Assembly (NCBI GenBank): GCA_965198005.1
Contig: CBDAOI010000002.1
Location: forward strand, 576,001 to 640,000
Source of the DNA: Spirochaetia bacterium
GTDB taxonomy: Bacteria; Spirochaetota; Spirochaetia; SZUA-6; Bin103
Direction of reading: 5' to 3'
DNA length: 64,000 bases
Part shown: positions 8,477-45,502 of the stretch, one piece after another
How positions within the stretch are numbered: the first letter of the stretch is position 1
Layout of the letters: the number at the start of each line of letters is the position of its first letter
Made by a program: the position numbers and the translations under genes
The notes under the pieces: model-generated
The model's database searches: none
Seen by the model: the letters and a program-made list of their open reading frames with translations, nothing else
What the model was told of the DNA's origin: nothing

Positions 8477-10447
8477 TTACGCGGCGGCGCCCTCGCCGAG
8501 GATCTCGACGGTGACGTAACGCTTGAACTCGTCGACGCCCGTGAAGCACCGGAACCCTGCCTGACTGGCGAGGGCCAGCGTCTGCCCTTCCTCGTTCAGC
8601 AACACAGCCACGGGCTGGCTCAGCTCCTCCTGGATGCCGTTCGGCCACACGAGATCGAAGACCGCCTTCTGTTCGCCGGACTCCGGGTCCGAGAAGTCAT
8701 AGGCCACCACACCGCGGGGGAGACCTGTGGCCTCCATCCACTCGTTCAGCGATTCCAGCTGTGCCTCTTCCTCCTCGCTCGTGATGCCGCCAAGGACACG
8801 GGCCGGCACAGGCGCGACCGCCGTCGCACTCGCGAGCCACCGGGTGTCGCCGTGCAGCAGATCCTCCATACGCCGGTTGAGCTCCGCCGCCAGCAACTCC
8901 TTCCTGGCTTCGAGGAAGTCCCGAAACCTTTCCATCTTCCAGAGTGCCGGGTCCATCGGGATCCACTGTGACGCCAGGCCGCCGGGGTGACGTGTCTCGA
9001 ACTTCGGGAAGTATTCCTCAGGCAGCCGGTCGCTGATCTCCAGGTTCGTGTCCTTAGTCTGGAAGCAGAAGTTCGCGAGGGCGTTGACTTCCGGGCGCCT
9101 GTACTTGCACTCGTAGAGCCGGGCCTTCGGGAAAATGTGGTGCACCTCCAGGCTACTCATCTTGCCGAGCAGGCTCGCCTTGAGCGGCAGCCCGGCCCCC
9201 CAGTCCTTGGCTTCTCCCATGCGGGTAAGCAGGTACAGCACCGGATAGAACCGCGCGCCGAGGCTCCACCCGGTGAAGTGGCCCGGCTCGGCCCGCAGCC
9301 CCCCGTGCCAGAGCCGCAACTGCTCCAGCAGCTTGTCAAGGCCGCCGTCGTCGCCTTCGAGCGCGGCGAGGTCCTGGTCGATGAAGGACTCGGTGGAGCC
9401 GGAGAAGCGCCCCCACATGGCCGCCTGCACGAACCAGAAGAGCAGCTTGTCGCGTTCCTTCGCACTCATCGCGCCGCGTTGCTTCGCTTGGCGCTGGTCG
9501 AGATAGCGCACCATCACCGGCACGCCGAAGCGACCAAAGAACACCTGGTCGTGGTCGAGACCCAGCCGCCCGCCGATGAAATTGAGGCTCGTGTCGATGT
9601 GTTTCGTCGTGCGGGCGAGCGCGTCCTGTACCTCGGTGGCACTCTTCTCATGCAGGTGCTGGAACCTTGCCTCCCCGGTCAGCACCGTGTTCACCGAGCG
9701 CAGCAGCCAGTCGAGCGTGAAGTGGTAGCCGGCGTTGTTCCACTCCTTGAGCCTGACCTTCATCGCATCGCGCCCTTCAGGCCACTCGGCGCAGATCTTG
9801 GCGAGGGCAAGGTCGCCCTTGGAGAGCTTGGTGCCACCGCTGTTCACCCGGTTGAAGATGTTGACGACCACGTCGAGCGACTTGTCCGCGCCGGTGACTT
9901 CCTCAACGTGCAGGTCCACCTCGACGATACCGAGCAGCTGGCTCAGGCGCCCGACGTAGTCGCCGACCTTGGGCGCTAGCGCCGGCTGCTCCGTGAGGCG
10001 CGTGCGCGTGACGAACTCGCCCAGCCCCGCGATGCCCTTCTGCATCAGCTCGGTCACGTCGGTCCACAGCGGATCGCCCTTCATCTTCACCGGCTGGTAG
10101 AACTCGAAGGTCTCCATCTCCAGATGAAAGCGCAGTCCCGTGAACGCCCGGGTGTTGCCATCAAAGAACTTTGGCGCCCTCCCACGCACCACGCCGTACA
10201 GGGAGGTCATGCGCTGCTGGCCGTCGAGCAGGAGCTTCACCACCCCCGCGGCAAGCGCGCCGTCACCGCGGTGCGCGGCGGTCTTCGCCTCGGTGGCCCA
10301 CACCAGGAGCCCGCCAACCGGATGGCGGCGGTAGAGCGAGTCGAACAGGCCGCGCACCTGATCGCGGTTCCAGACGTAGCCACGCTGGAACTCGGGCAAT
10401 GCCATGTGCCCGCTGTCGATGTAGTCGAGAATTGTGGAGATCTTCAT
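8477..10447 (-). CDS. DUF262/DUF1524 (GmrSD-type) modification-dependent restriction protein
   Basis: LPEFQRGYVW, LLDGQQRMTSL and IFNRVNSGGTKL (DUF262); EVHHIFP..ALANF (HNH-like); intact 656 aa. Confidence 0.88.
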   Translation of the reverse strand: MKISTILDYIDSGHMALPEFQRGYVWNRDQVRGLFDSLYRRHPVGGLLVWATEAKTAAHRGDGALAAGVVKLLLDGQQRMTSLYGVVRGRAPKFFDGNTRAFTGLRFHLEMETFEFYQPVKMKGDPLWTDVTELMQKGIAGLGEFVTRTRLTEQPALAPKVGDYVGRLSQLLGIVEVDLHVEEVTGADKSLDVVVNIFNRVNSGGTKLSKGDLALAKICAEWPEGRDAMKVRLKEWNNAGYHFTLDWLLRSVNTVLTGEARFQHLHEKSATEVQDALARTTKHIDTSLNFIGGRLGLDHDQVFFGRFGVPVMVRYLDQRQAKQRGAMSAKERDKLLFWFVQAAMWGRFSGSTESFIDQDLAALEGDDGGLDKLLEQLRLWHGGLRAEPGHFTGWSLGARFYPVLYLLTRMGEAKDWGAGLPLKASLLGKMSSLEVHHIFPKARLYECKYRRPEVNALANFCFQTKDTNLEISDRLPEEYFPKFETRHPGGLASQWIPMDPALWKMERFRDFLEARKELLAAELNRRMEDLLHGDTRWLASATAVAPVPARVLGGITSEEEEAQLESLNEWMEATGLPRGVVAYDFSDPESGEQKAVFDLVWPNGIQEELSQPVAVLLNEEGQTLALASQAGFRCFTGVDEFKRYVTVEILGEGAAA

Positions 10448-12294: not shown

Positions 12295-13284
12295 CTACTC
12301 ACTCGTTACGCCGCATCGGTCTGCCACCGCGCGTGCGAGCGCACGAAAGTCGCGGTAGCAACCCTGCACGGCGTTGGCGTGGCCACCGATCGCGCCGTCC
12401 GCCGGTTTCAGGGAGAACATCGGTTTCCGCGCCTCCTGTGCCAGCGGCATCAGGCTCCGAAAGTGTTTCAGCGTGGCCAGGCAATGCGGGTCGGTGTCGG
12501 TGGATGGGACGTTGTTCGCGGGCGAATCAATGACGAAGTCTCGATACGCACCCGGGATGCGGCCCATCCAGCGTTCATACGCCTTTGCCGGTCGGTTCAG
12601 CCGTACGGCATGTTGCAGCACCACGTACCCGAGCGGCTGCATCCCGCCTGGCGGCAGGTCGAGGTCGGCCACCGGGTTACGTTCCCGGCGCTCTGCCCAC
12701 TGCTTCCTCCATTGCCGTAGCGTCGGCCCGAGATTGCGCAGGCCTTGTATGGAGTACAGGTCCGGTGCCAGCGGGACCACAACGTGGTCGGCGGTAACCA
12801 ATGCCGCGCGATTCAATGCGCCGAGATTCGGTCCCACGTCCACCAGAATCAGGTCCGCCAGCATCTGTTCCGCGGCCATGCGCAGGGCACGCCAAAGCGC
12901 AGACAGCACACGGAAGGCTCGTGGCTTCTGGTCGAGACAGTCCGGCCAATTGCTCGCCAGTTCATCTTCCGCGCCCGACAACAGCATGTCGCCGGCGACC
13001 AGCCCGATCCCCACTGCCGGCTCGATCACACGCGGCTGTTGTACGTCTCCGGTTCCGTCCAGCAGTGGGCGCAGCGCGGCATAGATCGTTCCGTTACCGT
13101 GATCATCCGCCCAGAGCCGCTCCAACTCGCCATCGTCCAGAAACATGCTGGTCAGGTTGGCCTGCGGATCCAGATCGGCCACCACCACCTTGTAGTCAAG
13201 CCTGGCGTACATCCACGCGAGGTGATAGACGAGGGAGGTCTTCCCCACGCCGCCCTTGTTGTTGAACACGGCGATGCTCTTCAC
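12295..13284 (-). CDS. ParA-family ATPase
   Basis: FNNKGGVGKTSL, DLDPQANLT, DVGPNLG; start overlaps the upstream stop (GTGA). Confidence 0.9.
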   Translation of the reverse strand: MKSIAVFNNKGGVGKTSLVYHLAWMYARLDYKVVVADLDPQANLTSMFLDDGELERLWADDHGNGTIYAALRPLLDGTGDVQQPRVIEPAVGIGLVAGDMLLSGAEDELASNWPDCLDQKPRAFRVLSALWRALRMAAEQMLADLILVDVGPNLGALNRAALVTADHVVVPLAPDLYSIQGLRNLGPTLRQWRKQWAERRERNPVADLDLPPGGMQPLGYVVLQHAVRLNRPAKAYERWMGRIPGAYRDFVIDSPANNVPSTDTDPHCLATLKHFRSLMPLAQEARKPMFSLKPADGAIGGHANAVQGCYRDFRALARAVADRCGVTSE

Positions 13285-14471
13285 GGCGCAATCCGTACCG
13301 TGGCTACCACGAGAGTCGGCTGGAAAGCGAACTCGGGCGGCGGGTTGCCGTTCTCGGCCAGGGTCTGGCGGGCGAGCCGTATGCCCACGCCGAAGCGTTG
13401 CGCGAAGCCGAGGCGGTGCATGATCTCGGCCAACAGCGGATTGCGGTAGTCGGTGTCACCCGTGCCGAAGTTCTCCGGGGTGATTCTCCCGTACAACCCG
13501 CCGGGGCTCGCAATCTCTACACGGTCCGCGAACCAGTGAATTCGTACCGGTGTGTTGGTTCCTTCGTAGGTGCGGTGCATGACGGCGTTGTACGCGAGTT
13601 GCCGCAGTGCGTCGATCGGATAGTCGGGGCGGCGCCGTTCGCGCAGCGCACCCACGACCTCGGTGCGAACCGAAACGTTCAATTCGAGCAGCTCGTCGAG
13701 GCGGCGCACCACGTCGTCCAGGCGCCCGGTGAGCGGCTTCTGATCCCGGATAGGGTCCGTAATCTCGCTGCCGTCGATGCGCAGGAATTGAACGTACGCG
13801 CCGGGTACGAATGCTTGCGGATCCACTCCAAACGCAAGCACGGCCGCCCAGGTCGGCGTTCCGCGATGAACCAGCCGCAGAGACTGCAATTGATGCGCCA
13901 GCGGTCGTTCGTTCTTCTCGAGAACTTCCGGCGCAATCGCATTGGGCAGGTAACAGCGCCGTGCGAAGTCCAGATCGAGAGCCTCGATAGCGACGCCGGG
14001 GGCTGGTCTCATGTCGAACGGCACGTCGGTTGCGCGGCGGCGCTCGCTGAGTATGCGCTCGTCCGAAACGGCTGCCTCGCGTACGGAGGGACCGACGCGG
14101 ACCCAAACGCGACCGCGGTACCGTACCGGTGGATCGTGTGCCGGCTCGACGGTTACGACCGCCACGTCGCAGCCGTTCAGCAGCCGCTTCTGGACGGTCA
14201 TCGACGGCAACGGCAGGATGTCGCCCTCTCCGCGAATGTTCGCGAGCCGCGTCAGCACCTCGTCATCGATCGTCAACGACGCGCAGGCCCCGTCATCCTG
14301 AACGCCAACCAGCACCACACCAGCGCGGCCATTTGCAGGCAGATCATTGGCAAACGCGCAGATGTTCCGCCGGATTTTCGTGCCGTCGGCAACTGACCTC
14401 TTGCGTTCCACCAAGTCAGACTCCAGGTCCGACATCATTGACTCGAGTTCAGAATCGGAATATGTTGCCAT
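13281..14471 (-). CDS. AlbA_2 (Schlafen-like) domain plus HATPase_c_4 (RecG C-terminal-like) protein
   Basis: ESDLVERK..ICAFAN..GVVLVGVQDDG; YPIDALRQLAYNAVMHRTY..RVEIASPGG..YRNPLLA..GVGI. Confidence 0.85.
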   Translation of the reverse strand: MATYSDSELESMMSDLESDLVERKRSVADGTKIRRNICAFANDLPANGRAGVVLVGVQDDGACASLTIDDEVLTRLANIRGEGDILPLPSMTVQKRLLNGCDVAVVTVEPAHDPPVRYRGRVWVRVGPSVREAAVSDERILSERRRATDVPFDMRPAPGVAIEALDLDFARRCYLPNAIAPEVLEKNERPLAHQLQSLRLVHRGTPTWAAVLAFGVDPQAFVPGAYVQFLRIDGSEITDPIRDQKPLTGRLDDVVRRLDELLELNVSVRTEVVGALRERRRPDYPIDALRQLAYNAVMHRTYEGTNTPVRIHWFADRVEIASPGGLYGRITPENFGTGDTDYRNPLLAEIMHRLGFAQRFGVGIRLARQTLAENGNPPPEFAFQPTLVVATVRIAP

Positions 14472-19134: not shown

Positions 19135-20433
19135 TCAAGCGGCGGCTGCCCAGGGCTGTGGTTGGGGCTGGAAGTAGCGTTCCAACTCACCGTTGAGGAG
19201 TGCCAAGCGGGTGCGCAGCACGCACTCGTTGTCGTGGCGCTTCCAACGCATTCCGTTGCCTTTGAACCGTCGCCCGACGACAAACTTGCACTGACCTTCC
19301 ACTGAGCCGCTGCCGATTGGCCAACCAGCTGCTCGGTAGCGCGGGTAGTCCATGCGCTCCTGGTTGTTCTTGAAGTAGTTGGTCTGCTTCCAGGCAAGGT
19401 CGCTGTCGCTGGTCTTGGGCACCGCGCGCTTCATCTCGTGAATCATTTGCAGCACCTCGCCCTCCCACATCATCGTCGACCAGCGGCGGCGTCGTGCTGT
19501 ACGCAGCGATGTCGGCAGCAGATCACCATAGTCAGTGAGGTGTTTCTCAGCATGGTAGTAGTCGAGAATTTGTACCGCTCCGGGAAAGTGGGTCATCTGC
19601 AATTCCCAATTGTGGTGCGCGCCATCGGCCAGAAATAGCGTCTGCCCGGCATCCATGAAGCCCATCTGCAGCCCCGCCTGCTCGGCGTACTCGGCGAATT
19701 CCTTGCGTGGTCCGTAGCGCGCGCCCGTCCAGCGGTCGATGATCTTCTTCCCTTCCCGCTGCTCGATGACTATCAGGTTGCACTCCTTGTGACAGGTCGG
19801 AGCGCGCAGGCTCGCACGCCCCGTTACTCCTTCCAGCTCAGTGATTTGTGGACTCATCGTTCCGTCCACCTCAACCACCATCAGCGGGCACGGTCGATCC
19901 CTGCGCGCCGCTTCGATCAGAGGAGCTTCCGGAATACGCTCCCCGGTCTTCTCGGTGGTCCGCTGCACCGCCGTCGCACTTACGCTGAATCCCAGCAGCC
20001 GCTCCAGCTTCTCTGCCGCCCCCTGGTACGACTCATCAGCGCCCAGCGCGCAGATCAGCAGCGTCATCAACGGTGAGTACCCGAAACAGCCGTCCATTCC
20101 CATTTGCGCATCCAGCGGCGCTATACTCCCCGACCGATCCCGGTACCGGTAGCACCGTCGCGGGCGTACTACCTCCTCCCCAAATCGGTTGATGAAGCGT
20201 AGATTGCGCACCCGCTCGAACACCGCCACCTCGTCCCCCACCTTGATCTGGTTGGCGTGGGTCGGCTCTTCGACGCCCTCGACCACCTCCTGGACCATCA
20301 TGTCCCCAACCCAGTTCACGAACTCAAGAATCTTCCCCTCGGCGTCGTGCAGGCCGATCTGGCCGCCGTTGATACGCCCCCTGAGCTGCTTGACGAGGTC
20401 CTGAGCCTGCTCTATAATTTCTTCCGTCTTCAT
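19135..20433 (-). mobile_element. ISKra4-family transposase, intact ORF
   Basis: EVDGTM, LADGAHHNW, ILDYYHA, YFKNNQERMDY..GWPIGSGSVEGQCK..RFKGNGMRW. Confidence 0.9.
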
Positions 20434-20960: not shown

Positions 20961-21480
20961 TGCAGCACCGCCCGCTGTCTGAAGCTCGGCCACGTCGCGT
21001 TTCAGGTTCGCCACGTCCGCCTGCAGAATACGCAAATCGGTGGCGTAAGTTGTTCGCTCCACAGCCGCGACGATTTCCGCGACCAAGTGGCCCACGACGT
21101 CCTTACCCGACCACGCGGGCTGGACCGCGGCGGCTATCCGCTCGAAAAGGACCAACCGCGCCGAGTCAACCCCTGGACCACACCCTCGGCAATCTCCTGA
21201 GCTAACCCGTTGTGGAGGAATGCCAACTCCTGCCTGACGAAGCGGCCGTGAATCTCCATGTCCTTGGTCAACTTAGCCATCTTTTCATCGAAACCGGCCA
21301 TCTTTTCATCGAAACCGGCCATCTTTTCATCGCGGCCATCTTTTCATCGAAACCGGCCATCTTTTCATCGAAACCGGCCATCTTTTCATCGAAACCGGCC
21401 ATCTTTTCATTAAGACTGGCCACGTTATCATAGAGCCTGACCAGCAAATCGTCTCTGTCGGCCTCCGTCATCCAATGCAC
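20958..21480 (-). pseudogene. coiled-coil protein with heptad VNTR, split over three frames
   Basis: MTEADRDDLL..(MAGFDEK)n..LTKDMEIHGRFVRQE..EIAEGVV / ..EIVAAVERTT..LKRDVAELQ. Confidence 0.65.
21276..21411. repeat. 21-bp tandem repeat (GGCCATCTTTTCATCGAAACC) x~6.5
   Basis: Directly visible; one unit is 4 bp short, which shifts the frame. Confidence 0.95.
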
Positions 21481-22122
21481 CTCCAGTGTACGGATATTCC
21501 ACTAGCTAGCTAGCTATACCACATGGTGGCACGGTTCATCAAGCGGGACCAAAGGTCGCGGCGCATCTTCATGGAGCTGGTGCCCTCGATGCCGGTGGTC
21601 ATGAGGTAGCCGGCGATGGCCCATAGTCAGGGTGCCACCGAGGGTGTCGGCGAAACCAAAGCTCAGTTTGCCGTTCACCAACACCTGGTCGTCGGCTGAG
21701 TCATCACACTTGCGTCACCTGTAGTAGTCAGCGTAATAGTCTCCGCCGCCGGGGCAGACGTTGGTGTGCTCGGTCCCCCCGATCAAGTGGCGGAAGACGC
21801 GCTGCGCCGGGCCACGGTGGCCGGGGCGATCGTGGTGGCACCGGGCGGCGACGGTTCAGCGGAGATGCCGACTGGTAGGGCTCACCGTCGGCGCCGGCCA
21901 CCAGGAAACTCGTATTCGAGCCGTTCCGCGCCCGATCCCGTCGGGCGCGACGTTTGCTGATGCTGATCCCGGTGACCTTGGGGAGCCGATTGGGGGGTCT
22001 CCATCATCGACTGCGTTCAACCGAATCGTGATCTGCGCTCCGATGCTGCTGAGCGTAGCAGTCGCCCTTTTTGCCGGGATCGTCGTATTCGTTGACACGG
22101 ACGACACGGACCTCCAATCACC

Positions 22123-22164
22123 CAACAAAAAACGGCGCATCCGGGAGGGATGCGCCGTGGTTGT
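22123..22164 (-). terminator. intrinsic terminator after msp cassette 3
   Basis: ACGGCGCATCC/GGATGCGCCGT stem plus U-run on the minus strand. Confidence 0.85.
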
Positions 22165-22186
22165 CGAAGTGACCTGGTAGGGGGGT

Positions 22187-23235
22187 CTAGTATTTGACCT
22201 TGGTCCAGGCGGTCAGGACGCCCAGGTCGTCGTTGTCCGGATCGAACAGCGATTTGGACTTCCACTTCATGCCGAGTTCGGCCATCGGGATCGCCTCGGT
22301 TAGCAGCACCTGGAGTTCGGTATCCACCTGGGACTTCTCGTTATCCAACCGGTTGAGGGTGACGTCGATACTCGGGGTCAGCTTGCCGCCGAGTGCGTCG
22401 AACCCGTAGCTGAGGTTGGCGTTGACCATCATGTCGCTCTTGTCGTTATGGGTCTTGCCCGTGGGGGTGTCGGGAGCTTCGGGATTACCGTTGGCAATAT
22501 CGAACAGTCCCCAGGAAAGCCCGAGGCTCAGGTTCTCGACCAGCCCCATTCCGTCGCCCATCGTTCCGTCGTCCTTCAGTCTGACGTCACGTCACTCGCG
22601 ACATCGTTGTCGGTGGAGTAGATGTAGTTGGCATCCAGCTTTGGTGCCGGTCGACAGCGCGAAGCCCAGCCCGGCGCCCAACTCGTAGTCGGTGCTGGCC
22701 TCTCTGCGGTGTCGGTGGCGCCGGTCAGCACGACGTCGTCGGCGCCCGCCGACAGGGACAGATCGCCGAGGTTGCCCGTGATCTTGGCCGCGAAGCCGGT
22801 CGCCCGTCCGACGGTCGGGTCGCTGTCGTCGCCCTCGATGGTCCGGACGCCCTGCAGGTCGACCGTGGCCGGGCCGATGTCCACGTCGATGTCACCGTTG
22901 ACGTACCAGTCGTGCTTCCTGGCCAACTCGTCTTCCTCGGCCGCGGCATCGTCCGCGGGCTCGTCATAGCCAAGCCCCGAAGAGACTCCCACCGCGATGC
23001 TCGGACCCTCCTGTCGAGCCCGGCGTGGTGCCGTGGCCGCCGAGATGGACGCTGAGATCCTCGTCGTCGCTCTCCGCGTTGCCGGCGTGGTCGTCATCCT
23101 CGACCGCAGGGATCAGGCCCGCCTTGTTGCTGGGAGACGTGTAGATCTGGATCGACGGCGGCCGGTTGATCAAACTTGGCGGTTACGTCCGGATTTTGAC
23201 CACGGCTAGCGCCCTCATGGGTGTGCCCCTCGTGG
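22187..23235 (-). pseudogene. msp-like C-terminal cassette 3 (no start or signal peptide, frameshifted)
   Basis: Homologous to the C-terminal part of 25736-27814; ends LGVLTAWTKVKY. Confidence 0.85.
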
Positions 23236-23318
23236 GCAGCCGCAGGTGTAGTTCGGGAACGCACCAGCGGCTGCGGGCGTGGCTTCACCGGCTGGCACTT
23301 GGCGGCGTGATCGACCTG

Positions 23319-23363
23319 ACAAACAAAACGACGGCGCATCCGGGAGGGATGCGCCGTCGTTGT
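23319..23363 (-). terminator. intrinsic terminator after msp cassette 2
   Basis: Same stem-loop as 22123-22164. Confidence 0.8.
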
Positions 23364-23392
23364 CGAAGTGACCTGCTAATTGGGGATCTAGT

Positions 23393-24415
23393 CTAGGACT
23401 TGACCTTGGTCCAGGCGGTCAGGACGCCCAGGCTGTCGTTGTCCGGATCGAACAGCGAGTCGGACTTCCACTTCATGCCGAGCTCGGCCTGCGGGATCGC
23501 CTCGGTCAGCACCAGCTTGATCTCGGTGTCCACCACGGCCTTGTCGCTATCCAACCGGTTGTACTTCACGTCGATGCTCGGGGTCAGCTTGCCGCCGAGC
23601 GCCTCGAACCCGTAGCCCAGGTTGGCGCCGACCATCATGTCCAGCTTGTCGTTGTGCCCCTTATCCTCGTTGTCGGGATTGCCGTTGGTCAGATCGTACA
23701 GTCCCCAGCTCAGCGCCAGGCTCAGGTTCTCGATGATCCCCGCGGTGTCTTTCAGGCTGACTTCCACGTCGCTCGCGACGTCCTTGTCGGTGGAGTAGAT
23801 GTAATCGGCATCCATCGTGGTGGTGTCGGTCAGCGCGAAGCCCAGGCCGGCGCCCAACTCGTAGTCGGTGCTGGCCTCTGTGGTGTCGGTGGCGCCGGTC
23901 AGCACAATGTCACCGCCCGCCGACAGGGACAGATCGCCGAGGTTGCCCGTGATCTTGGCCGCGAAGCCGGTCACCGGTCCCACGGTCGGGTCGCTGTCGT
24001 CGCCCTTGATGGCCTGGACGACCTGCAGGTCGACCGTGGCCGGGCCGATGTCCACGTTGATGTCACCGTTGACGTACCAGTCGCCCTTCCTGGCCGACTC
24101 GTCTTCCTCGGTCGCGGCATCGTCCGCGGGCTCGTCATAGGCAAGCTCCGAAGAAATCCCGACCGCGATGCTCAGCGCCTCGGTGTCGTAGCCCAGCGTG
24201 GTGCCGTGGCCGCCGAAGGTGGACGTTGAGATCGTCGTCGTCGCTCTCCGCGTTGCCGGCGGCGTCGTCATCCTCGACCGGGGGGGATGAGGCCCGCCGC
24301 GTTGCTACTGGGAGACGTGTAGACCGGATCGACGACGGACGGTTTGATCATCTTGGCGGTTACGTCCGGATATTGACCACGACAGCGCGCTCATGGGTGT
24401 GCTCCTCGTGGGCAG
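23393..24415 (-). pseudogene. msp-like C-terminal cassette 2
   Basis: Open for ~270 aa to LGVLTAWTKVKS; 5' part frameshifted; no N-terminus. Confidence 0.85.
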
Positions 24416-24493
24416 CTGAAGTGTCGTTCGGGAACGCACCACCGGCTGCGGGCGTGGCTTCGCCGGCTGGCACTTGGCGGCGTGATCGACCTG

Positions 24494-24535
24494 ACAAAAA
24501 AAACGGCGCATCCGGGAGGGATGCGCCGTCGTTGT
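24494..24535 (-). terminator. intrinsic terminator after msp cassette 1
   Basis: Same stem-loop plus A-run. Confidence 0.85.
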
Positions 24536-24558
24536 CGAAGTGACCTGCTAATTGGGGA

Positions 24559-25575
24559 TTAGTAGGAAACCTTGGTCCAGGCGGTCAGGACGCCCAGGCT
24601 GTCGTTGTCCGGATCGAATACCGAGTCGGACTTCCACTTCATGCCGAGCTCGGCCTGCGGGATCGCCTCGGTCAGCACCAGCTTGATCTCGGTGTCCACC
24701 ACGGCCTTGTCGCTATCCAACCGGTTGTACTTCACGTCGATGCTCGGGGTCAGCTTGCCGCCGAGCGCCTCGAATCCGTAGCCGAGGTTGGCGCCGACCA
24801 TCATGTCCAGCTTGTCGTTGTGCCCCTTATCCTCGTTGTCGGGATTGCCGTTGCTCAGATCGTACAGTCCCCAGCTCAGCGCCAAGCTCAGGTTCTCGAT
24901 GATCCCCGCGGTGTCTTTCAGGCTGACTTCCACGTCGCTCGCGACGTCCTTGTCGGTGGAGTAGATGTAATCGGCATCCATCGTGGTGGTGTCGGTCAGC
25001 GCGAAGCCCAGGCCGGCGCCCAACTCGTAGTCGGTGCTGGCCGCGGTGGTGTCGGTGGCGCCGGTCAGCACAATGTCACCGCCCGCCGACAGGGACAGAT
25101 CGCCGAGGTTGCCCGTGATCTTGGCCCCGAAGCCGGTCGTCGGTCCCACGGTCGGGTCGCTGTCGTCGCCCTTGATGGTCTGGACGACCTCCAGGTCGAC
25201 CGTGGCCGGGCCGATGTCCACGTTGATGTCACCGCTGACGTACCAATCGCCCTTCCTGGCCGACTCGTCTTCCTCGGTCGCGGCATCGTCCGCGGGCTCG
25301 TCATAGGCAAGCTCCGAAGAAATCCCACCGCGATCCTCGGACCCCTCGGTGTCGTAGCCCAGCGTGGTGCCGTGGCCGCCGAGGTGGACGCTGAGATCGT
25401 CGTCGTCGCTCTCCGCGTTGCCGGCGTCGTCGTCATCCTCGACCGCAGGGATCAGGCCCGCCTTGTTGCTCCGGAGACGTGTAGATCTGGATCGACGGCG
25501 GCCGGTTGATCAACTTGGCGGTTACCGTCCGGATTCTTGGCCACGACAGCGCCCTCATCGGTTGTGCTCCTCGTC
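24559..25575 (-). pseudogene. msp-like C-terminal cassette 1
   Basis: Near-identical to cassette 2; ends LGVLTAWTKVSY. Confidence 0.85.
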
Positions 25576-25669
25576 GGCAGATGCAGTGTCGTTCGGGAAT
25601 CGTTCGGGAACGCACCACCGGCTGCGGGCGTGGCTTCGCCGGCTGGCACTTGGCGGCGTGATCGACCTG

Positions 25670-25712
25670 ACAAAAAAAAACGGCGCATCCGGGAGGGATG
25701 CGCCGTCGTTGT
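25670..25712 (-). terminator. intrinsic terminator of the full-length msp-like gene
   Basis: Same stem-loop plus A9 run. Confidence 0.88.
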
Positions 25713-25735
25713 CCAAGTGACCTGCTAATTGGGGA

Positions 25736-27814
25736 TTAGTAGGAAATCTTGGTCCAGGCGGTCAGGACGCCCAGGCTGTCGTCGTCGGGATCGAATACCG
25801 AATCGGACTTCCACTTCATGCCGAGCTCGGCCTGCGGGATCGCCTCGGTCAGCACCAGCTTGACTTCCGTGTTTACCATGGAAGGCTCGCTATCCACCCG
25901 GTGGAAGGTAACGTCGATGCTCGGAGTCAGCTTGCCGCCGAGAGCATCGAAACCGTAACCAAGGTTGGCGTTTACCGCCATGTCCATCTGATCGTTATGG
26001 GTATTGTCTTCGGTGTCCGGGTTACCGTTGGTCACATCAAACAGTCCCCAACTGAGCCCGAGGCTCAGGTTCTCGACGATGCCCGCGCTATCCTCCAAAG
26101 AGACGAACACGTCACTCGCAACGTCCTGGTTGCTGGAATAGATGTAGTCGGCATCCAGTGAAGTGGTTTCGGTGAGCGCAAAACCGAGGCTCGCGCCCAT
26201 CTCCCAGTTGGTCTCGGCCGCCGCGTCGCCAATGGCACCGATCAACTCCACGTCCGCGCCCGCCGATAGGGACAGATCGCCGAGGTCGCCCCCGATCTTG
26301 GCCGCGAAACCGGTCGTCGTCGGATTGTCGCTGTCCTGGCCTTGGATCGACTGCACGACCTGCAGATCGACCTGGGCCGGTCCGATATCCACCATTATGT
26401 CACCGCTCACGTACCAGTCACCCTTCGTGGCCGACTCGTCTTCCTCGGTTTCGGCATCGTCCTCCGGCTCGTCATAAGCAAGCTCAGAAGAGACACCCAC
26501 AGCGATGCTGAGACCCTCAATATCGTAGCCCAGCGTGATGCCCTTACCGGGCAACTCGACCTGAACGTCGCCATCATCGCTAACCGATGCATTGTCGGCG
26601 TCCAACACGTCGTGCTTGTCATCGTCACCTTCGAGGGCATCGATCAACCCCGCCTTGTTGTCGGGACCCGAGAAGATCTGAATCGACAGCGGCCCGTTGA
26701 TCAGCTTGGCGGTGATCGTCGGATCCTTGATCACGATAACGCCCTCGTGGGAGTGCGCACCATGCTCATGCGGCCCATGAGTATGCGTATCGTGGGTATG
26801 TCCGGCATTCTCGGTGTTGTGCGTGTGGGAATGAGGCAGGATTGCCGGGATCTCGTACTCGCTAATGTCGAATTCGTCGAAGGCCTCGTCGTTATCGTCG
26901 CGGTCCATGGCCGTAACCAGATGATAGTGGACTGGAACGGCAGGCTGTTCTACGCCACCCACGTCCTCCGCGGGCTCCGATACTCCGGTCCGCGCAACGT
27001 TACCCCCCGCTCGTGCGACGCAGCTTGTACTACATTCATCGGTCGGTCGCGTAAAGCTCCCAGGACCGGTTTGCGGACGTGTGCTTTCGTCCACATCGGC
27101 CGTGTCTGCGTCATCCTCAAATACCGGCACTCGGGATCCTTGTTCGCCTGCGTCTGCGAAGGATGGCAGTGCATGTGTATGGGTAATTTTTGCGTATATG
27201 GGTCCAGTGTATTCGGTATCTTGAATATTAGTGGACTTTCAGGGTCGCACCCCCTCAGTTTCTCTATCCATCACATACCCTGTGTACCCACTGTCCGTAA
27301 TCTCACCGAGACTATCTGCAGGTAAACTGGAGCCGAAATACGTATTCGGAACAATTACGGGATCTTCGCTTCCGTCAATAGTGCCGTGACTATGGGGATA
27401 GGCCGGATACATGACACTACCGTCACCGGTCATGCTCTCAGTCGCGGATGGACTGGCAGCAGCGCCGCCGGTATCGGCCGTAGCCGCGCTCGTGTCCTCC
27501 GAGGTCTTGTGCACGTCATCATGACCTTGGTCGATGATGATCCGGAAGTCCTTCAGCTCGATCACGCCGATCCAGCCCGTGGAGTCCATGCCCATGTCCA
27601 TCGGGTTGGAACTGGACATCTTCGGCACCAGCGTGAGGCTGATGTTCGAGCTGAACTCGTTCTTGAACCCGAGCTTCTGATGATCCAGGTTGTAGCCAAG
27701 GGTGGCCGTGGCATCACCAGAGATCTCGAATTCCGTGTTGATAGCCATTTGCCCATACAGGCCAGCCGAGCCCGCGGCAAGTAGCACCACTAGCAGAAGT
27801 GAAAGTTTTCTCAT
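25736..27814 (-). CDS. Msp/MOSP-like major outer-sheath (surface beta-barrel) protein; one in-frame TGA at 27241-27239
   Basis: AAGGAGG RBS; signal peptide MRKLSLLLVVLLAAGSAGLYG; SGDATATLGYNLD..GFKNE (MOSP-N-like); acidic His-rich centre; amphipathic strands ending KISY. The two track ORFs are in the same frame. Confidence 0.75.
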
Positions 27815-27914
27815 CACTTCCTCCTTCAGTTATTGTCGGGGCTCCGGAGCGTCACCCGGGGTCTTTCGGGCCAACGACCCGGCAGAACCCTGCCCCCGCT
27901 TTCCGTTGGTGCGA

Positions 27915-27944
27915 ATATTGCACCGCACACTACGGCTTTGTCAA
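27915..27944 (-). promoter_or_regulatory. sigma70-like promoter of the msp-like gene
   Basis: TTGACA-N18-CAATAT on the minus strand. Confidence 0.6.
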
Positions 27945-28254
27945 CTACTATATCAAGTTGCGTCAAAGATTTTGCCCGACGCGCGAGGTCTTGTCCAGTC
28001 CCCCCGCCAGGCCGCGTAAACGCGCTCATCTCCGATCTCCTCCGCCCACGCCCGAGTGAGGCGCCGCCGCCCGCCAGGGGCCGCGCCGCCCGCTCCCGCC
28101 GGGACGCTCCGGCAGGTGCAGGTCGTGGGAAACAGAAGCATAACATACGCGCGCAGGTCGTGTCCACCCCCCAGCGCAACTTTTTGCGCGGTGGGGAGGT
28201 GGGTTCTCCCCTGCTGCGACGATCGGCAGCATGGAGGATGAATATATCAGCATC

Positions 28255-28362
28255 ATACGACACGCGTCAAGTCTACCACAAGTGGCAAGGGTACCACAAG
28301 TGGGAAATCTACCACAAGTGGCACGTCTATGACAAGTGCCGAATATACCACCAGCGGCAGGT
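28255..28362. repeat. 18-bp degenerate tandem repeat (CTACCACAAGTGGCAnnn) x~6
   Basis: Directly visible; core CCAC-AA-GTGG is palindromic. Confidence 0.85.
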
Positions 28363-28417
28363 CGTGTCCAGGGCGTCCGCCCGGCCCTGCGCCGGGCCGC
28401 GGACGGGAGGCGGGCGG

Positions 28418-28696
28418 TCATCCGGCGGCCTCCGCGGCGGCGGCATCTCCAGGGAGTGGCTCGCCGTTGGCGCGCCGCCAGGGTGCGGCCAGCATGCCCT
28501 CGATCCGCGCGACCCGTTCGCGCAAGTCGGCGACGGCGGCGTCCAGGCGGTCGAAGCGCGCTTCCAGGCGGTCGAAGCGCGCTTCCATACGCGCTTCCAG
28601 GCGATGTACGGCGTTCATCAGCAGCCCGAAGGCAGTAATGACCGCAGCCAGCAACGACACCCCCACGGCAAGCATGGCGACCAACTCGGCGGTCAT
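28418..28696 (-). CDS. small membrane-anchored coiled-coil protein
   Basis: N-terminal TM, then LEARMEARFDRLEARFDRL..LRERVARIEG. Confidence 0.7.
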   Translation of the reverse strand: MTAELVAMLAVGVSLLAAVITAFGLLMNAVHRLEARMEARFDRLEARFDRLDAAVADLRERVARIEGMLAAPWRRANGEPLPGDAAAAEAAG

Positions 28697-28844
28697 GCGG
28701 GCGGCCTCGGGGTCGGGACGCTCGGTGGGCACTGCTCGCGGCGGCCGGTTGACCGGTCGCGGCGGCGGCGGCTACCATCGGCACGCCCGGCGGGCGGCAG
28801 TCCACAGCCGCCCGGATGCGCCGGGAACGGGGTGAGAGAGACGA

Positions 28845-30062
28845 ATGGGTGCCGAATTCAGCCTTTCCATATATCCGTGGGTGTACGTCAGCAAGTTCGA
28901 CGACGGCTCATGGTACCACGACTTCATCGAGAAGCGCCACCTGTCGCCGGCGGCGGAAGCGGCGCTGCCCGACGCGGACCGGGAACAACTATACCGCGAA
29001 CGCAACCAGTTTGCAAGCCTCCCGCTGGTGACGTATTCCACGCAGTACGCGATGGCGTGCTTCGAGGGGCTCAAGGCGTTTCCGCAGCCGGACGGATCGC
29101 TCAAGCTGTTCCGCCCGCACGAGAACGGACTGCGAATGAAACGGTCGATGGAAGGGCTGTACATGCCTGGTGTTCCCGTTGACCTGTTCGTGGACGCGGT
29201 GCGCGGCGTCGTGGCCCGCAACCAGGCAATCGGCTTCGCGCCGGAGTACGATCCGGCCTGGGAGCGGGACGAGTTCGAGTCCGGGCACTCGGTGTACGTC
29301 CGACCCTTCTCATACGCCGAAGCGGGGATCGGCGTCAACCTGTGCGAGGCACCCTATTTCATTGTGGTGAGCACGCGCGTGGGCGCCTACTTCGGCGCCG
29401 GCGATTCCTCGCCCACGGTGACCACCCGCCGCATCCGCGCCACGCCCGGCGGCACCGGCTGGATCAAGTGCTGCGCCAACTACGTCACCAGCGCGCTGGC
29501 CAAGCGGGAGGCGGAGCAGGGCGGCTACCTCGAGTGCGTGTTCCTCGACGCCCGCCACCAGCGCTACCTTGAGGAGGGTTCCTCCTGCAACCTGTTCTTC
29601 GTGCTGTCCGACGGCCGGCTGGTCACGCCCGAGCTGGGCGACACGGTGCTGGCCGGGATCACGCGCCGCACGGTGATCGAGCTGGCCGCCGAGCGCGGCA
29701 TCCCGGTCGAGGAGCGCGCGGTGGCGATCGAGGAGGTGCTGGACGACGCGGTGGAGGCGTTCGGCACCGGCACCGCGGCCGGGGTCACCTACTTCAGCTC
29801 GATCCGGCACGGGGAGCGCGAGCAGGTGTTCGGCGACGGCGCCATCGGGCCGGTGGCGCACGCCTTCCGCAGCCGGCTCAAGGGGGTGCAGTACGGAGCG
29901 CTGGAGGACCGCTACGGGTGGATGGTGCCGGTGGCGGCGGGAGGGGATGACGCGGGGGACGCTGCCGGAGCGGCGGCCGCGGCGGTGGCGGCGGAGGGCG
30001 TGGCGGCGGCCGAGGGCGCCGCGGACGGGAGTGCGGCGCTGGCCGGCACGGCGCGCGGCTGA
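28845..30062 (+). CDS. ilvE: branched-chain amino acid aminotransferase
   Basis: YAMACFEGLKAF, LFRPHEN, IKCCANY (PLP Lys), EEGSSCNLF, LAGITR, GTGTAAGV. Confidence 0.93.
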   Translation: MGAEFSLSIYPWVYVSKFDDGSWYHDFIEKRHLSPAAEAALPDADREQLYRERNQFASLPLVTYSTQYAMACFEGLKAFPQPDGSLKLFRPHENGLRMKRSMEGLYMPGVPVDLFVDAVRGVVARNQAIGFAPEYDPAWERDEFESGHSVYVRPFSYAEAGIGVNLCEAPYFIVVSTRVGAYFGAGDSSPTVTTRRIRATPGGTGWIKCCANYVTSALAKREAEQGGYLECVFLDARHQRYLEEGSSCNLFFVLSDGRLVTPELGDTVLAGITRRTVIELAAERGIPVEERAVAIEEVLDDAVEAFGTGTAAGVTYFSSIRHGEREQVFGDGAIGPVAHAFRSRLKGVQYGALEDRYGWMVPVAAGGDDAGDAAGAAAAAVAAEGVAAAEGAADGSAALAGTARG

Positions 30063-43865: not shown

Positions 43866-44216
43866 TCATGCCTCATCGCGCTTCCCTTGGCGGTCCAACT
43901 CCCTCGCCACGAATGGCGCATGCCGCTGCAGGTAGGACCAGCTTATCTCTCGGCACCAGTAATCTACGGCAAACTTCCGCCGCGCTTCACGGCATTGCGA
44001 GTCGTTGAGCCGCAAACGCTCAATGGTATTGGTCACGTCGGCCTCAATGCCATCGGGAAGCCCGGTACCCGGCACCACCTGGAATTCGTACAGTTCCAGA
44101 GCAAACCATCCGTCCTTGACCTCGAACGGGTCCAGCACCTGGTCAACGCATCCCTTGCGGGCGTTCATCAACGCGCAGGCCAGGCGGTAGTTGCTCCATT
44201 CGTAGACCGGATCACG
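43866..44216 (-). pseudogene. HNH-type partner nuclease, N-terminally deleted
   Basis: YEWSNYRLACALMNARKG..VLDPF..TIERLRLN; the upstream CxxC..DH part is missing. Confidence 0.65.
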
Positions 44217-45502
44217 GCTCGCCCCCGCACCGATTCCACGAATGCATTCCAACGCACCCAGAATACGTCGGGATCGGGCAGCACCGAACGAAGGTGTTCG
44301 TGTGCCTCCATAACTTCTTCGAGTTTCGGAGCCTGCTGTTGGAGCAGAGTTCTCGCTCGAAGGATCGCCTGCTCCGCCTCGACACTGCCGCGATCGGTGG
44401 CTAGATCGAAGGCCTCACTCGTGAGCCAGTGGCCGGCGCTGCCCCGCGGCGTATATTGGCGCCGCTGCAGGGTTACCCGTGGCGGCTCATCGACCAGATC
44501 GAGGTCGAACCATGCGTCCTGTTTCGGGTCGAACCATGCTTCAGTGGACCCGAGCACGAGCGGGGAGTGGGTGGCCGCCACGAGCTGAAAATCTCTTCCG
44601 GCGAAGGGTTGGGTGTCTTCATTGCCGAAATCTCGCAACGCCTTCAGAATCGACCGCTGCCAGCGGGGATGCAGATGGCTCTCGACTTCGTCGAACAGCA
44701 TGATCACGCGCTCGGTGACTTCCTCGCCCAACTGCCTGGCGGCGATCCGATGCTCGCTCCAGGCCCACGTCAACACATATGCCAGTGCGCATGCCCGACG
44801 AATTCCCGACGAGGCATGGAGTATCGGCACCGCACCTGCGTAGGAGGTCTCTATGGAGGGATAGTCCAGCGGGTCATCGACCGCAAGCCGCATGAGCCCA
44901 CCCGGTGTGATGACCTCCTCCGGCGCACCGGGAGACAGCGCCCGCAGTGCGGCAGCCATGGCAGTCGCGTTGTCATCCTGCGCCCGAATCCAGGTTGACC
45001 AGTCTCGCACCAGACCGTTGCAGACGGGAACATCCTCGTTGGTCCCGGTCCACAGACCCTCCCAGACCTCGGCCTCGGTGAATACGTACGCCAAGGGCCT
45101 TTTCCGCGGACCCAAGTTTCGGGCGGGGTCCCATACGGAAAACGACCCGTCGGCATGAGCATACACCACGAGCCCCGCGTTCCATCGACGTTCATTCTTG
45201 AATGACCACTCTTCGGCCCGTTGCAAGTACCTTGAGGTGGCCTCGATACTGTCGCTCTTGGCTGACAGACGAAAGCGGATCGACGCCGGCCTTGCAGGGT
45301 CAACCGGTCGGGCCGGCAGCCCGCAGGTCATGTGCCGGTTAACCTCGCGGGGCCAGTGCCGCGTGAGCGCCCACCACGCGGTGTCCAGCAGGAAGCTCTT
45401 GCCGAGACCGTTGTCACCGGTCAGAAGGTTTACCCGCGATGCGAATTCGATCTCCATCTCAGGCGCAGGTCCCGTGTTTTTCAGTCGCAGATACTCAAGC
45501 AT
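44168..45502 (-). CDS. AAA_21/ABC-type ATPase (PtuA-like)
   Basis: LLTGDNGLGKSFLL, HASSG, MLFDEVESHLHPRWQR, ATHSPLVL. Confidence 0.85.
   Translation of the reverse strand: MLEYLRLKNTGPAPEMEIEFASRVNLLTGDNGLGKSFLLDTAWWALTRHWPREVNRHMTCGLPARPVDPARPASIRFRLSAKSDSIEATSRYLQRAEEWSFKNERRWNAGLVVYAHADGSFSVWDPARNLGPRKRPLAYVFTEAEVWEGLWTGTNEDVPVCNGLVRDWSTWIRAQDDNATAMAAALRALSPGAPEEVITPGGLMRLAVDDPLDYPSIETSYAGAVPILHASSGIRRACALAYVLTWAWSEHRIAARQLGEEVTERVIMLFDEVESHLHPRWQRSILKALRDFGNEDTQPFAGRDFQLVAATHSPLVLGSTEAWFDPKQDAWFDLDLVDEPPRVTLQRRQYTPRGSAGHWLTSEAFDLATDRGSVEAEQAILRARTLLQQQAPKLEEVMEAHEHLRSVLPDPDVFWVRWNAFVESVRGRAVIRSTNGATTAWPAR

Follow-up and report, generated by a model that had tools for sequence, protein, structure and literature searches.

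On the minus strand of the 64,000-nucleotide (nt) stretch analysed here (the window: positions 576,001 to 640,000 of contig CBDAOI010000002.1 in the Spirochaetia bacterium assembly GCA_965198005.1) lies one full gene for a porin-like protein, read 27814->25736 in window coordinates and followed by three units of ~1.17–1.2 kb, A, B and C. Each unit consists of a spacer, a 5'-truncated copy of the gene and a terminator identical to that of the full gene (copy G). Together these make four direct-repeat copies with spacings of 1206, 1166 and 1177 nt and identities of 74–98%. Recombination takes place among the copies and probably also between them and the active gene. The locus comprises the following parts.

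28137-28370: additional promoter-like sites, from a consensus scan
27969..27997, minus strand: promoter-like site TGGACA-17-CAAAAT upstream of the full gene, a consensus match only
27820..27824, minus strand: ribosome-binding site GGAGG, 5 nt ahead of the ATG at 27814, read from the sequence
25736..27814, minus strand: full gene, copy G, for an Msp/Tpr-like porin; 693 codons in one frame, stop TAA at 25738-25736
27814-~27530, minus strand: part 1 of the full gene, signal peptide and first three strands
~27529-26770, minus strand: part 2 of the full gene, hypervariable His-rich middle loop
27239..27241, minus strand: in-frame TGA, codon 193, within the variable loop
~26775-25739, minus strand: part 3 of the full gene, rest of the barrel
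25675..25864, minus strand: 3' block in which the full gene resembles copy A, covering the last ~42 codons, 3' untranslated region (UTR) and terminator
25679..25707, minus strand: intrinsic terminator of the full gene
24502..25678, minus strand: unit A; spacer 25678-~25560, copy stop 24561-24559, terminator 24530-24502
23327..24501, minus strand: unit B; spacer 24501-24395, copy stop 23395-23393, terminator 23361-23327
22132..23326, minus strand: unit C; spacer 23326-23219, copy stop 22189-22187, terminator 22158-22132

This anatomy agrees in large part with a first-pass annotation of the same DNA, which had described three direct-repeat units of ~1.17–1.2 kb behind one gene, each made of a conserved ~100-bp spacer, a copy truncated at a common 5' point and the same terminator. 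The spacers measure ~88–130 nt and are 88–94% identical among the three units, all three copies start at the end of a His-rich ..HE(E/G)H..VTAK.. stretch, and an identical hairpin with a stem of 11–15 bp follows all four copies. The peptides quoted in that annotation are present, as are its C-termini KISY, KVSY, KVKS and KVKY, of which KVSY belongs to copy A, KVKS to copy B and KVKY to copy C. The copies also lie nearer to each other than to the full gene, as had been claimed (A–B identity 96–100%, G against A or B mostly 60–88%). The spacer has no match in the loci of six relatives, in three metagenome loci or in the rest of the window, and no further copies of the porin family occur elsewhere in the 4.9-Mb, 4-contig genome.

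All of the copies are preceded by a terminator, and none has a promoter-like site, a start codon, a signal peptide or the first three strands. No sigma-70-like sites were found in the spacers by consensus scan, which other promoter types could escape. A single expression site, one gene with a ribosome-binding site and signal peptide, accompanied by promoterless partial copies is an arrangement characteristic of silent-cassette systems. The earlier description of the copies as silent cassettes holds in that they are promoterless, truncated and placed behind terminators, but every copy is also frameshifted within its first ~80 codons. Copy B carries several such 5' frameshifts, and copy C, the most diverged, is frameshifted throughout, including inside the barrel. 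At the 3' end the last 316 codons of copy A and the last 303 of copy B are open. Copies A and B are separated by ~20 changes, with a synonymous divergence (dS) of 0.043, a non-synonymous divergence (dN) of 0.022 and a ratio (omega) of 0.51 that is not distinguishable from 1 (binomial p 0.11–0.29). The open last ~300 codons were rejected as a sign of selection since, at this dS, the copies are too young to have acquired stops. The copies appear to be silent pseudogenes that accumulate frameshifts, a silence at which the RNA contigs described below also hint. The GC content of the expressed gene is 55.6–59.4% (25739-27817), that of the silent copies 64.3–65.0% (22190-25672) and that of the window 66.8%.

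The full gene is, as annotated, a single 693-codon frame with a ribosome-binding site and signal peptide, but it is interrupted by the in-frame TGA at codon 193. Its MRKLSL start is also used by P0004 and P0082, two full-length alleles from other assemblies, with which its product is identical over residues 1–96 and collinear from end to end (P0004, 659 amino acids, 58% identity; P0082, 696 amino acids, 64%). The TGA falls in a poorly conserved acidic stretch. TGA is also the stop of 4 of the 6 Pfam-supported open reading frames (ORFs) in the window; recoding is disfavoured on this ground, and as TGA is an ordinary stop here, the full gene is either inactivated or miscalled in this assembly. 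The codon is apparently a nonsense mutation or an assembly error. RNA contigs of the public sequencing run X7 span the TGA region with 32 differences and 12 gaps relative to the window.

The middle loop in which this codon lies comprises ~240 residues, is predicted to be disordered and His-rich, and ends in HxH repeats (..HSHTHNTENAGHTHDTHTHGPHEHGAHSHEG..) that suggest metal binding. It is hypervariable between strains, with ~30% identity to P0004 and a closer match to P0082, and same-genus relatives carry only a short version of it. The loop varies as much as the barrel does, yet the genome contains no silent copies of it.

The annotation had called the protein Msp-like and proposed a check against the Pfam MOSP models. 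Even at E <= 10, neither MOSP_N (PF02707) nor MOSP_C (PF02722) matches P0004, P0006, P0010 or the protein of the window, and a search of the organism's own genome at E <= 1 found neither. A genome search for FlaA was equally empty, but so was its control. Pfam searches with pieces of the window protein and the three homologues returned only sub-threshold OMP_b-brl and Autotransporter matches, and P0082 belongs to no NCBIfam family. A distant kinship nevertheless emerges from profile comparison. When the family alignment (30 sequences) was aligned with hhalign against a MOSP alignment built from 11 full-length proteins with MOSP_C matches above cut-off, the probability was 95.2% (E 2.5e-8, 393 columns), a score of which a share comes from alike signal peptides; the alignment is collinear, starting at the signal peptide and ending close to the C-terminus. 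MOSP_N and MOSP_C are also present in the nearest named clusters of the ESM Atlas (scores 0.96–0.97, 196–205 shared features). These sequence comparisons support the protein being distant Msp/Tpr kin, not a member of the Pfam MOSP family.

AlphaFold2 models of P0004 (mean predicted local distance difference test score (pLDDT) 61.8, barrel mostly >80) and of the short homologue P0010 (mean 68.7) both contain a single barrel from residue ~27 to the C-terminus, with about 20 strand elements over residues 27–460 in P0010. The best VIA-align matches of the P0010 model (residues 23–461) are 18-strand porins: OccAB4 (5dl8_A, Z 15.0, 292 residues aligned, root-mean-square deviation 6.7), OpdQ (3t24_A, Z 15.0) and maltoporin (1mpr_A, Z 14.1), at sequence identities of 8–12% that make them a likeness of fold only. 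Foldseek returned generic barrels. The protein is therefore predicted to be a single porin-like barrel spanning the whole mature chain. This alters the proposal of a swappable barrel half. The copies do cover the later strands, but the first three strands and the long loop are encoded upstream of the duplicated segment; the copies encode the remaining strands only and cannot make a barrel alone. The product of the locus appears to be a highly expressed, strain-hypervariable, porin-like outer-membrane barrel and a distant relative of the spirochaetal Msp/Tpr proteins.

Within the window, the expressed barrel differs from every copy at ~22–25% of nucleotides except over its last ~190 nt, and hence was not built from these copies; the expressed variable sequence is not assembled from its own cassettes. 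Between G and A, dS is 0.50, dN 0.15 and omega 0.30. In windows of 30 codons the proportions of synonymous (pS) and non-synonymous (pN) differences are 0.29–0.74 and 0.07–0.21 everywhere but in the last 41 codons, where pS falls to 0–0.10. The annotation had placed the differences mostly in putative loop segments. This did not hold up: over the last 250 codons, residue differences between G and A affect 32 of 140 strand positions (23%) and 28 of 107 positions outside strands (26%; Fisher p 0.55), and only the indels are confined to loops. Variation is not restricted to discrete regions flanked by invariant sequence, and the 5' anchor between the gene and the copies is only 62–81% identical.

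An even spread of differences free of mosaicism across strains had been named as the outcome that would speak against an archive of cassettes. The spread is even, yet recombination is significant both among the copies and between the 3' end of G and copy A. Differences between G and A number 213 in 869 nt (24.5%) upstream of 25864 and 5 in 191 (2.6%) downstream (maximum chi-squared, permutation p <= 5e-4). The 3' tract shared by G and A is 98–100% identical, including the non-coding 3' UTR in which B and C differ, and it holds the longest exact match between G and any copy (61 nt). On this comparison the 3' block is a recombination or homogenisation tract. Copy A is itself a mosaic with a break at 25339: at its first 28 informative sites it follows copy C 15 times, and at the remaining 108 it follows copy B 103 times (p <= 1e-4), so that it is C-like 5' of the break and B-like 3' of it.

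Similar arrays occur in other assemblies, where they were compared at the protein level. Four contigs pair a full gene with cassette ORFs.

19,796-nt contig: full gene P0004; cassette ORFs P0078, P0077 and P0086
5,821-nt contig: full gene P0082; cassette ORF P0066
15,852-nt contig: full gene P0075; cassette ORF P0080
2,065,258-nt contig: full gene P0006; cassette ORFs P0067 and P0069

Of the 16 cassette ORFs from other assemblies, at least 9 are disrupted in frame at one place or another. P0005, P0069 and P0074 have the out-of-frame reading seen in copy B, so this frameshift is real and shared. P0067 and P0069 are ~90% identical to the window's A and B copies. Searches for the DNA of close alleles yielded three distant loci at 42–44% identity in a metagenome scan and none in a scan of genome contigs with P0004.

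Full-length alleles exchange their parts. P0002 and P0003 have identical N-terminal and middle parts but G-type and AB-type barrels respectively, the P0002 barrel being the window's G-type with a handful of residue differences; the swap starts within ~25 codons of the cassette start point and stops before the shared 3' block. Conversely, P0003 and P0079 have identical barrels and different middle loops. These two patterns indicate that loop and barrel are shuffled as modules. The proposed check for cassette alleles at the expressed locus of other strains is borne out in part, as cassette-type barrels stand in full-length genes behind an identical N-terminal half. P0079 and P0082 show one difference in the N-terminal and middle parts and five in the barrel, all five of which correspond to cassette A/B states.

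In a maximum-likelihood tree of barrel parts, the G-type, C-type and AB lineages form one clade (support 100/99). G-type barrels occur in expressed genes only and C-type barrels in cassettes only, and the AB clade mixes five expressed alleles with cassettes. The P0006 type falls outside this clade though its contig carries AB cassettes; its barrel is 46% identical to the window's and contains a long Thr/Pro-rich insertion. Neither the G-type nor the P0006-type has a silent counterpart. Since the expressed-site sequences of different strains are not each other's nearest relatives, there has been replacement at that site or exchange with the array. Seven near-fixed states common to the AB expressed alleles are missing from most cassettes, and none of the three cassette ORFs on the contig of P0004 is identical to it. 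At the same time, 10 of 13 polymorphic sites among the AB expressed alleles (P0004's private loop patch excluded) have their minority state in cassettes too. Compared with these alleles, copy A is 67–76% identical in its 5' piece and 91–95% identical over its 3' 250 amino acids.

Public sequencing runs, used as assembled contigs only, extend these comparisons. Part of the stretch is present in 15 runs from five studies, and the four RNA runs among them are labelled sponge metagenome. We compared X1, X2 and X11 (kind not recorded, treated as DNA) with X7 (RNA), every run coming from a different study. The copy/spacer junctions are spanned by contigs of all three DNA runs. In-register hybrid joints were found between C and B in X2 and X11 and between G and A in X1, the latter weak at a depth of 2.8. 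A 1300-nt contig of X11 joins the gene 5' end to a different middle part, the conserved junction region and a B-like barrel. The X7 RNA contigs cover the gene 5' end, a G-type barrel with the K->Q state of P0002, the window-type middle loop (with 32 other letters and 12 gaps, as above) and AB-type barrel sequence. On cassette coordinates, the expressed-allele states A->D at 25279/80 and V->E at 23973 account for all of the RNA depth in X7 and for 3.4/23, 17.4/100.2, 7.1/15.1 and 0/31.3 of the depth in the DNA runs (0–47%). This suggests an expressed AB allele, rather than the copies, as the source of the AB-type RNA, and expression of two barrel types within a single sample.

Several features of these contigs were set aside. 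X7 has a gap over the spacers and the copy C 3' end, both covered by the DNA runs, but a hole in contigs is no evidence, and we likewise drew nothing from the low depth summed across the G-type barrel in X1, X2 and X11. A joint in X1 (24267->28382, shorter side 21 nt) was ignored as unreliable. Contigs of X1, X2 and X11 all skip 248 nt at 22006-22255 (copy C 3' end, terminator and flank), from which other strains would end the array differently; the shorter side of this joint is only 29 nt.

For the porin gene, 9 of 10 genomes of the same genus contain exactly one match each, in a frame of 449–512 amino acids (eight at 43–48% identity and one at 29%); 5 of 13 genomes of a second genus contain weak matches, and none of 17 from other families of the same order contains any. 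The six same-genus loci examined belong to Spirochaetia or Spirochaetaceae metagenome-assembled genomes. The orthologue stands beside a class IV aminotransferase gene in five of them, as in the window (where this gene occupies 28845-30062), and is followed by a similar hairpin and T-run in all six, but none has a second barrel copy within 6 kb. With no relative species carrying it, the array is young and specific to this species.

The neighbourhood of the porin locus is variable and rich in defence-type genes. A 432-amino-acid ORF (19135-20433, minus strand) that lies 1.7 kb beyond the distal end of the array matches the ISKra4-family transposase model almost end to end (201.3 bits, cut-off 205). 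Small heptad-repeat ORFs with in-frame 21-nt tandem repeats flank the locus on both sides, at 21134-21480 (minus strand; MAGFDEK repeats, 6.6 copies at 21276-21410) and 28418-28732 (minus strand; EARFDRL repeats, 2.2 copies at 28542-28587). The two ORFs match no NCBIfam family, and a 17-nt unit breaks the frame of the downstream one. The defence-type genes of the window, all on the minus strand, encode a GmrSD_N restriction endonuclease (8477-10447), a Schlafen AlbA_2 plus HATPase_c_4 protein (13281-14471) and an AAA_21 (AbiEii-like) ATPase (44168-45502).

We lean, a little beyond an even balance, towards a model in which the array is a reservoir of promoterless pseudogenes that unequal crossing-over has built and rearranged, and that now and then trades sequence with the expressed gene. 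A 1.17-kb segment that starts where the His-rich loop ends and extends ~100 nt beyond the terminator would have been duplicated once by an illegitimate tandem event, and this single duplication would create the constant spacer/copy junction. Unequal crossing-over would then expand and reshuffle the array. When the expressed barrel misaligns with a downstream copy and the two cross over, either of two products may result: a new copy that combines an old, decayed cassette 5' part with an expressed-type 3' part, or an expressed gene whose 3' part comes from a cassette, the array being shorter by one unit. Such a model would account for the constant junction, the shared decayed 5' parts and intact young 3' parts of the copies, the C/B mosaic of copy A, the G/A 3' tract and the hybrid joints in the runs. 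The array would be a passive reservoir and fossil record of barrel alleles, exchanging patches with the active gene; the direction of this exchange and its ordinary recombination frequency are both inferred. The bulk of expressed-site diversity, comprising the middle-loop modules and the G, AB and P0006-type barrels, would have its source in allelic replacement between strains, not in the copies. That the copies are not the main source of diversity is supported by the seven near-fixed differences, the G-type dS of 0.50 and the lack of silent copies of the middle loop.

A dedicated antigenic or receptor-variation system of the tprK, vls or msp2/p44 type, with maintained silent donors and non-reciprocal, high-frequency conversion of the whole barrel or of segments into one expression site, would explain several of the same observations but seems unlikely to us. 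The single expression site beside a contiguous promoterless array, the retention of the array in several assemblies with differing cassette content, and the membership of the protein in the superfamily of TprK are what such a system would show. The bounds of the P0002/P0003 swap (near the cassette start and before the shared 3' block), the five cassette A/B states that separate P0079 from P0082, and the presence of G-type and AB-type barrels in one RNA run also favour it. Set against this are the variation outside discrete regions, an expressed barrel that shares with its own copies only the last ~190 nt, the seven near-fixed differences between AB expressed alleles and cassettes, and the distinctness of P0004 from each cassette ORF on its own contig. 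The poor 5' anchor, the frameshifted copies and the absence of an array in relative species weigh the same way. No G-quadruplex motif of the pilE-upstream type, or other special recombination signal, was found, the G-quadruplex scan covering 21000-29000. The opposite extreme, that the copies are inert leftovers of a tandem duplication decaying with no exchange while strain-to-strain allelic recombination explains the rest, we regard as rather improbable. It fits the frameshifts and heavily broken copy C, an A–B omega indistinguishable from neutral, the near-fixed differences, the species-specific arrays and an expressed-site diversity (G-type, P0006-type, middle loop) that far exceeds the cassette repertoire. 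It does not readily explain a G/A tract whose identity extends through the non-coding 3' UTR, the nesting of AB expressed alleles among cassettes while the window's expressed gene is G-type, the many polymorphisms common to expressed alleles and cassettes, or the weakly covered G/A hybrid contig of X1. We further considered whether the assembler had placed different strains' alleles of a single gene one behind another, as might happen with a metagenome-type source population in which several alleles co-exist. This artefact was rejected, and we give it almost no credence. The copy junctions contain a spacer found in no allele of the gene, independent assemblies and short-read contigs from three studies show these junctions and frameshifts again, and one 19.8-kb contig contains a full gene with three cassette ORFs.

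Several points weigh against the reservoir model, or at least limit it. If the TGA at codon 193 is real, the window's expressed copy is inactive and this genome is a poor model of the working state. The constant junction and conserved spacer could equally mark a dedicated donor architecture, and arrays kept in at least five assemblies despite decay may have been kept through selection. The patches shared by expressed alleles and cassettes may be cassette-to-gene conversion at a rate above the one assumed. Comparison at the protein level gives neither tract identity nor direction across strains, fast L3 loop evolution among expressed alleles weakens the 5'/3' contrast of copy A, and some frameshifts in the cassette ORFs of other assemblies could be sequencing errors. 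The RNA-versus-DNA comparison is weak because contigs drop rare variants and the runs come from different studies.

Among known systems the locus is most like the silent-copy systems TprK, Msp2/P44 and vls, while departing from them in the two tested features that define them, discrete variable regions and assembly of the expressed sequence from its own cassettes. The vls/tprK-like archive proposed in the first-pass annotation stands, then, as regards one expression site with promoterless copies and some recombination, but not in these two features. The property most decisive for vls/tprK systems is conversion that runs in one direction and at high frequency. Passages of PMC10063172 and PMC8480903 describe TprK as having seven discrete V regions that undergo non-reciprocal segmental conversion from 53 short donor cassettes. 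Like Treponema pallidum TprK, the protein here is a spirochaetal outer-membrane barrel by prediction, placed in the same superfamily by hhalign, with one expression site and silent donor-like sequences. Unlike the TprK donors, the copies here each reproduce a whole 1.17-kb 3' portion of the gene, terminator included, and follow it directly in tandem; divergence runs across strands and loops alike, and conversion into the expressed gene is hypothetical. Msp2/P44 of Anaplasma is also a barrel protein, whose pseudogenes are dispersed and have conserved ends on both sides. A part of PMC11946796 describes a surface protein with one expression site, truncated and transcriptionally silent copies ('functional pseudogenes') that can replace its variable part, and ~100 pseudogenes. 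The near-identical 3' block of the gene and copy A could serve as an anchor; here, by contrast, there are three tandem, frameshifted copies, and the 5' anchor is poorly conserved.

In Borrelia, a single vls expression site lies beside a contiguous promoterless cassette array, the cassettes sharing ~90% identity with their own vlsE across its central region and conversion being random, segmental and unidirectional (passages of PMC11499132); VlsE is a lipoprotein and not a barrel (part of PMC2632889). The single expression site next to a contiguous promoterless array is common to both loci. The copies described here, in contrast, are ~75–78% identical to the window's expressed barrel and each has its own terminator; in orientation they stand head-to-tail with the gene. 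In Helicobacter pylori, the outer-membrane barrel paralogues babA/babB and their relatives form chimeric expressed genes with homogenised 3' ends by ordinary homologous recombination, with no dedicated machinery known, and in this they resemble the exchange proposed here. The H. pylori paralogues are complete genes at separate loci, unlike the truncated pseudogene partners in a tandem array found here. The central region of Treponema denticola msp is variable among samples, according to the abstract portion of PMC3004910, and parallels the hypervariable middle loop; downstream truncated copies go unmentioned in that portion. Full-text searches of the literature, which did not cover supplements, found no description of the present array.

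A more speculative extension, which we hold to be possible though doubtful, is that the array acts as a self-renewing allele archive in a sponge symbiont population, in which unequal crossing-over stores the current barrel and redeploys stored ones. If true, this would be a heritable memory of surface variants against phages or host recognition, and would operate by reciprocal array recombination in a non-pathogenic, high-GC marine spirochaete, unlike the non-reciprocal segmental conversion of tprK and vls.

Recombinational surface variation with silent copies is known almost only in animal pathogens. Here a related architecture lies behind a distant Msp/Tpr relative in an uncultured, sponge-associated spirochaete, and the population data reveal barrel and loop modules swapped between otherwise identical genes. 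The selective agent may be phage, host or grazer. Should the copies supply sequence to the expressed gene, cassette-assisted variation would have evolved outside pathogenesis in the superfamily to which TprK belongs, and phages or host phagocytosis would be indicated as what selects for it in a symbiosis. Should they not, the locus would still be a dated fossil series of retired porin alleles, in which the beginnings of such systems may be studied.

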